From: Octopus vulgaris
Lineage: Eukaryota
Length of the DNA: 64,000 nt
Assembly (NCBI GenBank): GCA_951406725.2
Contig: OX597817.1
Span: 49,476,001-49,540,000 of the forward strand
Direction of reading: 5' to 3'
Shown: one piece after another, positions 19,270 to 54,579 of the stretch
How the letters are laid out: every line of letters starts with the position of its first letter
Position numbering within the stretch: position 1 is the stretch's first letter
Translations under genes and position numbers: made by a program
The notes under the pieces: model-generated
Databases searched by the model: none
Told to the model about the DNA's origin: nothing
What the model saw: only the letters and a program-made list of their open reading frames with translations

Positions 19270-19379
19270 CTTTTCTAGTCTTGGCACAAGGCTGGAAATT
19301 TTGGGGAGGGGCCAATCGATTAGATCGACCCCAGTACGGAACTGGTACTTCATTTTTTGACCCTAAAACCTCATCTACG

Positions 19380-19925
19380 TTCTCACATGCGCCGGTTGCC
19401 AACACAATTATGTTGGACAAACGAGCCTTCCTTTACGCAGAAGAATAGCAGTCCATAAAGAACAGATAAATTTCCCACAATACCGTCGAATTCCACTCAG
19501 TAGCCACATAGACTCTTGCGCTAGAGATAAAAATTCCAAATTTCACATATTCCCTTTCTACCAATGTGAAGACAGAATCACTACACAAGAAAGAATCAAC
19601 AAGGAGAATTCTTTTATTGAAAAATTCCAAGCGCGTCTTAACATGCAAACACCACGGTGACCATACTCCTTTTTCTAGCATCCTATCTGACAAAAAATTG
19701 ATATAAGCATCCTGTTTGACAAAAAATCCACCATTTCAATTAAAGAGCATAAAATCCACATAATTGTCTCCCCTTACTCACAGGAACTGGATACCTCCTA
19801 CCCCATTTGCTGTTTTGACACACAATCACCCACTCTTTCAAAATATACTCTACACTTGAACACATGCATCCAAATCCTCCAAAGAAGTTTTTCCAAGGAT
19901 TATTATTGAACTCTAAAAGCATAAA
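19380..19925 (-). pseudogene. possible highly decayed L1/Tx1-like ORF2 (RT) fragment
   Basis: Broken minus-strand peptides FCQIGC and SPWCLHVKTRLEFFNKRI weakly resemble RQGCPLSPLLY..LEPLLRKL (recalled motif). Confidence 0.3.
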
Positions 19926-30496: not shown

Positions 30497-30542
30497 AACA
30501 CAACGTTTCGGCTGATATACCCTCCAGTTTTCATCAGGTGTT
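30497..30542 (-). ncRNA. minimal type I hammerhead ribozyme motif
   Basis: AACAC-CTGATGA-AAACTG..CAGCC-GAAA-CG-TT-GTGTT. Perfect 5-bp stem I, palindromic AACGTT stem III, two mismatches in stem II. Confidence 0.75.
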
Positions 30543-35753: not shown

Positions 35754-35870
35754 ATTTACAGCCATATCACGTTGAAAGCACCGATTCTCGTCCCATCACC
35801 GAAGTAATCAACGTCGAGCCTAGTTAGTACTTAGATGGGTGACCGCTTGGGAAACCCAAGTGCTGTAAAC
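35754..35870 (+). pseudogene. dispersed 5S rRNA copy, probably a pseudogene
   Basis: GCCATATCACGTTGAAAGCACCG...AGTACTTAGATGGGTGACCGCTTGGGAA. Helix I TTTACAGC/GCTGTAAA; T5 at 35872-35876; altered A-box region. Confidence 0.85.
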
Positions 35871-36142
35871 GTTTTTAAATAGGTGCAGGAGTGGCTCTGT
35901 GGTAAGTAGCTTGTCTGTGTTTGTCTCCCCAACATCGCTTGACAACCGCTGCTTGGTGTGTTTACGTCCCCGTAACATAGTGGTTCGGCAAAAGAGAAAA
36001 AATAAAATAAGTACTAGGCTTACAGAGAATAAGACCTGGGATCGATTTGCTCGACTAAAGGCGGTGCTCCAGCGTGGCCGCAGTCAAATTATTGAAACAA
36101 ATAAAAGAATAAAAGAAATATATATATATATATATATATATA

Positions 36143-37832: not shown

Positions 37833-37865
37833 TTTAATGTTTCGAGCGGAGCTCTTCGTCAGAAA
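37833..37865 (-). ncRNA. minimal hammerhead motif with canonical core
   Basis: TTT-CTGACGA-A-GAGC tcc GCTC-GAAA-CA-TT-AAA, inside a Penelope-like fragment at ~37720-37940. Confidence 0.65.
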
Positions 37866-51226: not shown

Positions 51227-52379
51227 ATGTTGTTGTCGTCGACGTTTGCTCAAAGCCACGAAGGTGCGCAGCTTAGTAGTTAGGGTATTTGGCTCACGAT
51301 CGTAAGGCCGTGGTTTCGATTCCCGGTGGCACATTGACACCTTGAGGAAGACATTTTATTTCACGTTGCTCCAAATCTTTCAGCTGGCAAAAATAAGTAG
51401 TACTGGTTGTTCAAAGAGTCAGCCTTGTTGCATTCTATGTCGCGGTAAATCTCCCTGAGAACTACGTTAACGACATGCGTGTCCGTGGAGTACTCAGCCA
51501 CTTACATGTTAATTTCACAAACAGGCTGTTCCGTTGGTGGAGCTAACTGGAACCTTCGTCGTCGTAACCGACGGAGTGCCAGTGTATAGATCCAGGTTGG
51601 CCCTGATCGAGTATTGTAGCTTTCTAATGAAAAGCATACCGGCCGTGTGGAATAGAGAGAGCATGTCATTGATGAGGTCGTGAGTAGTGAACTTTAACAA
51701 ACCTAGTTGACTGACTGATTGACAGAACAATTAATCAAACGATTGATTAGTTTATTGGTTAACCAATTGACTAATAATAATTTCAAATTTTGATATAAAG
51801 CCACCAATTCTAAAAGAGGGAGAAACTCAATTACATCGACCCAACTATTTGACTGGTACTTTATCGACCCCGAAATGATGAAAAGCAAAGTCGTTTTCGG
51901 CGGCATTTGAACTCAGAACGTAAAGCTGGAAGGAACGCCGATGAGCACTTTAGCATGCTTCTACAAACTCGCCGCCTTGATCAAATTACTAATAATATTA
52001 AAAAAGTGAACTAAAACCAGTGCATGTGTTTATTATTGACATAATGGCCCTCCCGAGATAGAACAAAGTATATAGTAATATTAGGAAGAAAATACCTTGC
52101 AACATTTAGTCAAACCATTTTACGTTTGTACGTTCTTAGTTCCCATCTTACAGAGGTTAACTTTCTCATTCGTATTCTTAGATCAGTTAAAACACATATA
52201 TGTCTTCCCTTTATTTTGACGCTAAGGTGTGATTTGAGCTTACTGTATCTATTACGATGAGTTGCATATGTATTCTTCATATGTTCTGGCAGATTCGGAT
52301 GTGAAAATGCTAATCGCAGTTATGTTTCGTCACAGGAGATCATCTCTTTTTACGACGAATATATTTCCATCACACTTTC

Positions 52380-52454
52380 GATTCGTTTTACAAGGGACTT
52401 CGGGACACCCATTGTTTCAATATTATTCCCTCTCGTCAGTCGGACTATTGAATC
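52380..52454 (-). ncRNA. type I hammerhead, copy 1
   Basis: CTGACGA (52433-52439), GAAACA-ATGGG-TGTC with GUC at 52404-52406; base of stem II is G.U. Confidence 0.75.
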
Positions 52455-52547
52455 TAACAGGATTTCGAGATTCTTGTTTATAACTTGTACCAATCAATAA
52501 TAACATATCATTAATAATAACGACGAATATATTTCCATCACACTTTC

Positions 52548-52622
52548 GAATCATTTTACAAGGGACTTTCGGGCACCCATTGTTTCGACATTATTCCCTC
52601 TCGTCAGCCGGACTATTGAATC
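52548..52622 (-). ncRNA. type I hammerhead, copy 2
   Basis: CGG-CTGACGA-GA...TC-GAAACA; the cleavage triplet has lost its U. Confidence 0.7.
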
Positions 52623-52712
52623 TAACAAGATTTCGAGGTTCTTGCTTATAACTTGTACCAATCAATAACATATTATTAATAATAACGACGAATATATTTC
52701 CATCACACTTTC

Positions 52713-52787
52713 GATTCATTTTACGAGTGACTTTCGGACACCCATTGTTTCGACATTATTCCCTCTCGTCAATCGGACTACTGAATC
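52713..52787 (-). ncRNA. type I hammerhead, copy 3
   Basis: TTGACGA (C3U), intact GUC, perfect distal stem GATTCA/TGAATC. Confidence 0.7.
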
Positions 52788-53214
52788 TAACAAGATTTCG
52801 AGGTTCTTGTTTATAACTTGTACCAATCAATAATAACATATTTAGTGGTTCAAGTGACCACATGGACATGGACTTGTTGATTCCACGTCACAGACATTTG
52901 TTCGTGTTATTGTCGTCTTCTGTATCTGTGATATGCTATTGTTGCTCATAATATTATAAATGGTTGTTGGTGTTCTCGAGGCTCTCGCCACTATTCTTGA
53001 CATTATTGTTGCATTTTATTTTTTGCCTTTTATTTGTTTCAGTCATTGGACTGCAGCCGCGTGTGCTTCCAGTACCTAAATTTCTGAAGTCGGATATTTA
53101 TTCTGTCGCGCTCTTTTGCTGAACCACCAAGTTCAGGGGACGTAAACAAAGAACACCTGTTGTCAATTGGTGGTAGTGGGTGGGGTCAATTACACATACA
53201 CACACCTATATATA

Positions 53215-53387
53215 TATATAAATTAGAGAAGAACCACCATGTAGCAATTCAACAATGATTTACTTAAATCATACCATATAGAAAGAAATTAAAGATACGA
53301 TAAAACATTTACCTAGAACTAAATATGGTATGCTTTAAGTATATCATTATTGAATTGCTACATGGTGGTTCTTCTCTAATTTATATA
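53215..53387. mobile_element. foldback with ~65-bp arms in (TA)n
   Basis: 53215-53279 mirrors 53323-53387. Confidence 0.8.
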
Positions 53388-54579
53388 CATGTATTATATA
53401 TTGTGAAATTTGATTTAGTATTACTAAATTGAATTTTTGTCTGTAAATTTGGAATCATATTCCCTAATATCATCATTATTATTATACATACATATATGTG
53501 TATGTATAATATGCTGTGCAGAAAAAGTTTCCCGCGTACAGTAAAGGTGTACACACACCTTCACCAACACAGTGACGCCCACTGTCGGACACCTGAATAT
53601 ATATCTGACTCGTTATGCCTTCTTCAGTAGAGGATACCAAAAGGAAATAACCTTGAACTGACTAGAAAGCCGTCGCTTTATATTAAATCATTCAATAGTA
53701 ATGACTGATTGCGTTCGAAGACCGCCTGGTCAGAACAAATAAATAAATATTAATGCGAAGCTAATTATGTGTTTGTTCTGGCCGGGTAGTCTGGGGGTTA
53801 GATCGTTAGCTCGACTAAATTCTTCAAGAAGGTGCCCCAACATGGCCGCGGTCTGATGACTGAAACAAGCAAATGAATAAATAAATAAATAAATAAATAA
53901 GACCTTGTGACATTTAGTAACGTCATACATCTTTGCCGGGGGGCAACATTCTCATTCGTATTCCTGAGGCAATTGAATCAACTATGATTCAACTATATTC
54001 TCGCTACCCGCGCAAATGTTATAATGCTAACAGTCATAATTATTGACAGTTGACAGAGTCAGACGTGCCTACCAGCTAATGTATGAACGACAAATAAAGT
54101 TTCAAATATCTTTCCCTAGAGGAGAAATATTCAACAAAACACGCTTCTCTCTAGTTACAATAAATTTTATAAAGTCAGTGAATTTATATCCGATAGAATA
54201 AATATTTTATTTTAATCAAAATCTTTCGAGGATTCCTCGACATGTCTGACTCATTCAACAGTGAATAATTATGATAATGGTTTCAAATTTTGGCACAAAA
54301 TCAGCAAATTTAGGGAAGGGGTAAGTCGATTACATTGACCCCCCCAATGTTCAACTGGTACTTATTGACCCGAAAAGGATGAAAAGCAAATCGACCTCAG
54401 AAGAATTTGAACTCAGAACGCAAAGAGGGATGAAATACCTATTTCTTTGCTACCCACAAGGGGCTAAACATAGAGAGGACAAACAAGGACAGACATACTG
54501 TTAACATACTGTTAAGCATTTTGGCCGGGATGCTAACGATTCTGTCAGCTCAGCGTCTTAGTAATTATAATCATGTCCC

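Follow-up and report, generated by a model that had tools for sequence, protein, structure and literature searches.

The window analysed here, a stretch of 64,000 nucleotides of Octopus vulgaris DNA (assembly GCA_951406725.2, contig OX597817.1, positions 49,476,001 to 49,540,000), contains a tandem array at positions 52352-52841 with a period of 165 nt, 2.9 copies and 92% matches, whose minus strand holds three hammerhead cores (Table 1). A trimer of units of about 166 nt with such cores, as reported in a preliminary description of the locus, is thus indeed present. The C3 and C17 positions of each core correspond to its higher and lower coordinate, and successive C3 positions are spaced by 165 and 168 nt. 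Contigs from three DNA runs (three organism codes) cover the array, each piece differing at 0-2 positions. As one of these contigs also bridges the junction between copies A and B, the array is not an assembly artefact. A loop III base of copy B (52579) is different in all three DNA runs and perhaps reflects an allele or the base of a neighbouring copy. The cores have zero cover in a possible RNA run (X14), which has no bearing on expression either way. Just upstream of the element, positions 53208-53394 hold a 72-nt inverted repeat that is 93% complementary, with its parts 43 nt apart. No target-site duplication was seen by eye at the ends of the element.

Table 1. Features of the array and the adjoining part of the family unit. 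Positions are those of the window; the prefix u denotes positions in the 329-nt unit of the parent family.
Feature	Positions	Strand	Description
Copy A of the 165-nt unit	52677..52842	-	Family ~u310-329 and u1-189 with two deletions; C3U in core; UCCC changed to UCAC
Copy B	52512..52676	-	Cleavage triplet GCC; starts with short AT-rich filler like adjoining TTATTATTGAT
Copy C	52352..52511	-	Core and GUC intact; stem II mutated further; runs into rest of family unit
Remaining 3' part of family unit, u190-u288	52254..52351	-	Single copy; stops at the commonest 3' end of the family
Hammerhead core A, C3 to C17	52737..52772	-	Adjoining upstream deletion removes the 5' strand of stem I
Hammerhead core B, C3 to C17	52572..52607	-	Adjoining upstream deletion removes the 5' strand of stem I
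Hammerhead core C, C3 to C17	52404..52439	-	Adjoining upstream deletion removes the 5' strand of stem I

Hammerhead structure in the copies of the array

The copies of the array contain the 3-bp stem III and the distal GAUUCA/UGAAUC helix of stem I, both of which had been described, and each copy also bears a different private lesion, as had equally been recognized (C3U in A, GCC in place of GUC in B and altered stem II bases in C). In addition to these individual changes, stem I is lost in all three copies. The sequence preceding C3 reads CCGA, CCGG and CCGA and the sequence following C17 CGAAAG, CGAAAG and CCGAAG in copies A, B and C, respectively. In register, one of six stem I pairs is found in A, two of six in B and three of six in C, where the first pair is an A-C mismatch, leaving zero, one and zero pairs adjoining the core. 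The consensus put forward earlier has a surplus C following the cut site, where the copies show C^CGAAAG (A and B) or C^CCGAAG (C), and its proximal stem I, CGG/CCG, arises only by joining the 5' side of copy B to the 3' side of copy C. Stem II, which is GAGG compared to GACA (28/46 aligned rows) or near variants in the parent family described below, contains a G-G or G-A mismatch in every copy. The proposal that the consensus is intact is thus contradicted by two defects that are common to all copies.

The preliminary description had further suggested a pseudoknot between GGGA in loop II and UCCC in a bulge of stem I. Both sequences are complementary in copies B and C, with UCAC found in A. 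The GGGA is mutated stem II, generated by two substitutions that are private to the locus; it is absent from all 46 family rows, and the equivalent four pairs are complete in one row, with three of four found in two more, which does not conform with a conserved interaction. The UCCC that follows stem I is family sequence, which normally supplies the 3' strand of both the stem I loop and the distal helix: its UC is the 3' side of the internal loop in 28 of the 46 rows and the following bases pair with a GGG stretch that is deleted in the window. Three or four of these four pairs are found in 31/46 family rows, and pairing with the deleted stretch extends over 70% of cells compared to 59-67% in slid alignments, a difference that is weak alone.

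The window as a whole contained no hammerhead in an Rfam scan at the gathering score, the sole match being a 5S rRNA copy, and at E<=10 the 801 nt around the array yielded four chance matches and no hammerhead. When the secondary structure of single copies is predicted, the partner of GGGA is the cleavage site in A (p 0.57-0.69) and in C (p 0.92-0.97), the GGGA-UCCC pairing of B is reached at just p 0.13, and a hybrid hammerhead of B with C is placed 19 kcal/mol above the ensemble, all in calculations whose energies leave out tertiary contacts and Mg2+ and in which the family consensus hammerhead fold itself weighs 2e-4 in the ensemble. Since one arm of the ribozyme is lost in all three copies, we predict that they do not cut and are thus catalytically dead.

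The parent repeat family

A genome search with copy B, in which the best 10 candidates were scored, recovered the three window copies and nine other places at 70-87% identity, extending over 45-146 nt in the best-scored relatives. These relatives are part of a dispersed family whose consensus, assembled from 40 segments, matches itself with a period of 329 nt. The family unit thus comprises 329 nt instead of the 166 nt assumed previously. Second copies are located 310-340 nt away in L008, L032 and L041, as expected for natural dimers or trimers, and 13 of 45 family loci exceed one unit by 40 nt. A pattern of the family core, derived from these relatives, is found at 29 and an upstream 20-mer at 12 exact matches in the genome, with controls giving zero in both cases, numbers that roughly suggest hundreds to thousands of copies. 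With its length, a GC content of 38.6% and neither an ORF nor a match to Penelope proteins, the unit falls into the range of short non-coding tandem units (about 170-400 nt, GC under 45%). The copies are on average 75% identical to the consensus (range 66-85), which characterizes the family as old. A literature search whose reach ended before the supplement of PMC7229834 found no paper on this family and, at the level of listings, no description of a cephalopod retrozyme; among the rows listed in the supplement of Craig et al. (PMC8557442), Octopus appears under Naiad.

The hammerhead of the family is of the canonical type I with a 6-bp stem I and a 4-bp stem II, and the cut site is located at u136. 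Our alignment (A1) contains 46 rows, omitting L027 (near-identical to L026), L049 (whose core is too decayed for placing), L005, L006, L011 and L012 (the same places as L017, L046, L056 and L052) and the 5'-truncated first copy of L008. In these rows 79.5% of the cells of the named structure are paired compared to 29-41% when slid, and the covariation of 0.211 is equalled by one of 500 shuffles, with two of five structure measures being no better than shuffles. In 28 of the 46 rows, the core and stems II and III were fixed by the pattern with which the rows were picked. Stem I is free of any such constraint: it is 77.5% paired, and two of its pairs vary on both sides (UA 18/CG 13 and CG 20/UA 15), which may reflect one subfamily split. 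RNAalifold, applied to the 46 rows, recovered stem II and none of the other stems. The Rfam model Hammerhead_1 (RF00163), which has the same 6-bp helix I and 4-bp helix II, matched at least 4 of 19 scanned family loci (34.1, 32.6, 30.0 and 23.2 bits), with no match at the window locus among those listed; a further member, L093, scores 34.8 bits at a gathering score of 34. Compared to this model, helix III of the family is fuller with 3-4 bp and a non-palindromic loop. We presume a resemblance of the internal loop in stem I to the docking loop of the Schistosoma ribozyme. By our own criteria, the hammerhead is intact in 10 of the 46 rows, and two intact hammerheads in tandem were found in none of the sampled dimers (L008, L032 and L041), which represent a small part of the family. 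Position 2.1 (column 53 of A1) is an A in 16/46 rows and forms an A-C mismatch closing stem I in 8/46, possibly a subfamily variant with weakened cleavage. The family would have worked in the manner of a retrozyme and looks extinct in the sampled loci. The preliminary description was right in deriving the array from a non-LTR retrozyme-like repeat with a type I hammerhead.

Deletion and probable triplication at the locus

The window copy has lost 11 nt containing the 5' strand of stem I and about 35 nt further upstream, and its stem II has changed from GACA to GAGG, features that are shared by copies A, B and C. The distance from an upstream motif to C3, which is 11-26 nt in 46/46 family rows, is reduced to 2 nt in the window. 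Relatives elsewhere do not show the window's deletion, and in a pattern test that covers one deleted junction with up to two mismatches, as part of genome searches that score best candidates alone, all three occurrences are located in the window. The 166-nt form is confined to this single locus, which had been named beforehand as evidence against the retrozyme reading. Copies A and B stop within the unit at u189, and C reaches u288 at position 52254. With 93-94%, the copies are much more alike than any of them is to the family (70-76% by BLAST, 81% in a global alignment, 207/255), which places the shared lesions first and the triplication later. The three are about equally diverged, and their shared changes conflict as to the order of duplication. 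By eye, the junction between copies contains a short filler that resembles adjoining AT-rich sequence and that could have been left by DNA repair or slippage. A comparable local partial triplication of a family copy is found at L040:1501-2069, with a period of 195 nt, repeats that are 93% alike and each of them starting at the core.

We thus regard it as highly probable that the array belongs to a single decayed member of an old family of 329-nt type I hammerhead repeats. Its three copies likely arose in situ, through DNA-level duplication well after the insertion, and it is predicted to be catalytically dead. An internal segment of about 165 nt would have been duplicated twice, and each copy would then have acquired its own lesions. 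Such local duplication of a decayed copy also provides a better fit than the copying from a 166-nt circle envisaged before.

Quite improbable, by comparison, is a triplication during insertion, in which a Penelope-type reverse transcriptase would have repeatedly switched template on an RNA that came from a decayed locus and already carried the deletions. Although insertions of the family display Penelope-like rearrangements, and partial tandems and inverted copies are among the described products of Penelope-like elements (PMC8557442), the tandems of these elements repeat the 3' end whereas the window repeats end internally at u189; moreover, our genome searches found no source copy with the deletions elsewhere, and an RNA devoid of stem I would need another processing route. 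It is harder still to reconcile the data with a live or recently live mini-retrozyme of about 166 nt, which would have a rewired hammerhead with short stems I and II held by a GGGA/UCCC pseudoknot and would have been inserted as trimer from circular RNA, an extremely remote scenario: despite three tandem cores that mostly retain the 15 core letters, the complementarity in B and C, the surviving distal helix and the ability of the 5' half of B and the 3' half of C to form 3+2+3 pairs in a tandem transcript, the form is confined to one locus, stem I is formed in cis in no copy, the GGGA was made by breaking stem II and is found nowhere in the family alignment, the hybrid fold is as unfavourable as stated above, and a 166-nt circle could not template 2.9 units that continue for another 98 nt into the longer family unit.

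Insertion anatomy of the family and relation to Penelope-like elements

Family copies have their 3' ends within u271-330 at 32/45 loci, with insertions ending 150-190 nt past the cut site and scattered 5' ends. An inverted partial copy is located just upstream at 10/45 loci and downstream at 0/45, and the outer ends of these inverted copies fall within u274-329 in 9/10 cases (p about 2e-6 versus uniform), as defined by BLAST ends in 45 loci that were chosen for carrying a hammerhead and not selected for inverted copies. The family thus combines a fixed 3' end, 5' truncation and an inverted 5'-side copy, the anatomy of Penelope-type insertions. For Penelope-like elements, an inverted 5'-truncated copy adjoining the 5' end (PMC8557442) and, in an element of anoles, internal initiation downstream of the hammerhead (PMC11167929) are described.

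The genome holds young Neptune-like ORFs of 781 aa and young ORFs of 717 and 727 aa with RWK, DKT and CxCx5C motifs, which are marks of the Hydra clade (PMC8557442). Neptune-like elements with the 781-aa ORF were considered as partners of the family and rejected, as DNA similarity was absent in 30 + 3 loci and in 13 further GIY-YIG loci. Young Hydra-type elements equally showed no DNA similarity to the family in 35 loci. Two of 45 distinct family loci have a Hydra-type ORF, decayed and truncated on its 5' side, that begins where the unit has its 3' end and lies on the same strand, in one case (L096:3140-3970) from about residue 244 (E 1e-8) and in the other (L007/L166, at L166:622-1434) from about residue 370 (E 4e-12). 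A reversed-sequence control of this search was empty, and 55 other loci (178 kb) contained six Neptune RT cross-hits and one remnant, located on the opposite strand 1.4 kb from L093. The two junctions, which are suggestive only, might result from template jumping, targeted insertion or chance, and L096 and L166 are possible template-jump chimeras. A DNA search with the ORF remnant of L096 found itself alone, and abundant matches in another search were traced to an unrelated insertion of about 250 nt. L026/L027, examined as a pseudo-LTR pair, were likewise dismissed: the second unit is exactly the 252-nt duplicate that is 96.8% identical while the ORF separating the two shows heavy decay, as expected if the duplication came later.

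The insertion anatomy and the two junctions make Hydra-type elements a candidate for the mobilising partner. When alive, the family would have followed the non-LTR retrozyme mode, in which the hammerhead cuts tandem transcripts and a Penelope-like element provides the reverse transcriptase for their reinsertion, which would give rise to the fixed 3' end, the variable 5' truncation and the inverted 5' copies. As a tentative proposal, which we consider possible but less likely than not, the parent family might be a fossil retrozyme whose insertions retain the trace of its mobilisation. Its RNA would have been copied by target-primed reverse transcription of the Penelope type, starting at a constant position about 150-190 nt past the cut, and the enzyme would have been one of the Hydra clade, which at two loci would have switched from its own RNA to that of the retrozyme. 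It is rather unlikely that, instead of a free retrozyme, the 329-nt unit was a pseudo-LTR belonging to an autonomous Penelope-like element that is now extinct. The insertion anatomy, the adjoining same-strand Hydra-type ORF pieces and the kinship of pLTRs and retrozymes described in frogs (10.64898/2026.07.22.740005) would all be compatible with such an origin. A search for units flanking a full RT and GIY-YIG ORF showed the 5'-truncated remnants 3' of a unit at two of 45 loci and no unit after an ORF end. Against such an origin, these remnants begin mid-protein and no family unit follows within 6 kb at L166; upstream of a unit there is another unit and not the end of an ORF (13/45 loci extend more than 40 nt beyond a single unit); the unit is without DNA match to the about 80 Penelope-type loci examined; and its hammerhead is canonical (6 + 4 bp) and not of the minimal type of metazoan pLTRs (PMC4209133).

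Other hammerhead motifs and elements in the window and genome

The window contains additional elements outside of the array. Two minimal hammerhead motifs on opposite strands at 30537 (-) and 30907 (+) are arranged back-to-back at a distance of 370 nt, with the same pair found in L132, and their long stem II and palindromic AACGTT at stem III resemble those of Penelope-like repeats. Hammerhead-core motifs of other repeat families at 37862 (-) and 17965 (-) are each like a motif in L158. A GIY-YIG endonuclease remnant of a Neptune-like element (about 19367-19645, +) is 53-65% identical to genome copies, and a 5S rRNA-like copy (76.9 bits) is located at 35754-35871 (+).

Elsewhere in the genome, L160 (G000:C11:13699500-13707000) and many other places hold very young Hydra-clade elements with identical-scoring 717-aa ORFs in tandem and inverted arrays of 2.59 kb, whose spacer contains the core variant CCGAAGA in place of the expected CUGANGA. 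In a second Hydra-clade family with a 727-aa ORF (L161, L162), a hammerhead follows the ORF at a distance of about 1 kb. Among 73 candidates scored with Hammerhead_1, the highest value (45.5 bits) belongs to a single hammerhead at L090:1501-1547 with no tandem copy and no family match. L091, L092 and L095 represent another hammerhead family, in which stem II is extended by a very long insert (108-nt matches), and L091 has an inverted copy located just upstream.

Discussion

The array investigated in this study is real, and its unit, structure and history differ from what had been proposed; its interpretation as a very small retrozyme with a pseudoknot is not supported. Non-LTR retrozymes are described as tandem units of about 170-400 nt with canonical type I hammerheads that give rise to circular RNA, with Penelope-like elements as proposed helpers, and their units encompass 350-390 bp in mussels and 220-245 bp in corals (Cervera and de la Pena, 2020; PMC7229834). 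The parent family shares with these elements a non-coding unit of about 330 nt, the low GC content, a canonical type I hammerhead, genomic dimers and trimers and the co-occurrence with Penelope-like elements. Unlike the metazoan retrozymes, it is old and two intact hammerheads were seen at none of the sampled loci, and the window trimer is further set apart by its truncated 165-nt unit without stem I. In a recent preprint (10.64898/2026.07.22.740005), an active retrozyme is defined by two consecutive complete hammerheads and linked to pLTRs, with eight of nine tested dimers being inactive, a definition outside of which the window trimer falls. The canonical metazoan hammerhead has 6 bp in helix I and 4 bp in helix II (PMC4209133).

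A further counterpart of the window array is local tandem duplication or the birth of a minisatellite from a transposon fragment, as presented in the same preprint (10.64898/2026.07.22.740005), where a young array at a single locus also originates from part of an older dispersed element, although in our case with just three copies and a ribozyme core included by chance. It is because the duplicated segment happens to include this core that the array mimics a retrozyme. The window trimer is thus ordinary, a dead fragment that was duplicated locally, and it calls for caution since searches for tandem repeats with a core will label such arrays as very small retrozymes. The shortest published unit lengths of retrozymes may include arrays of this kind.

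The parent family is a modest addition to the known retrozymes. With the Hydra clade of Penelope-like elements, as described by Craig et al. (2021; PMC8557442), it has in common clustered 3' ends, a variable 5' truncation and an inverted 5'-side copy, and it differs in encoding no protein and in the lack of detectable DNA similarity to the young Hydra-type elements of the genome. Its clustered 3' ends and 5' inversions, the two junctions with Hydra-type ORFs and the intact Hydra-type elements in the genome make the proposed mobilisation of animal retrozymes by Penelope-like elements testable. The partner of animal retrozymes has so far been argued from co-occurrence and pLTR homology; if true, the jump of a Hydra-clade enzyme between RNAs would constitute evidence at the level of insertions that names the autonomous partner of an animal retrozyme.
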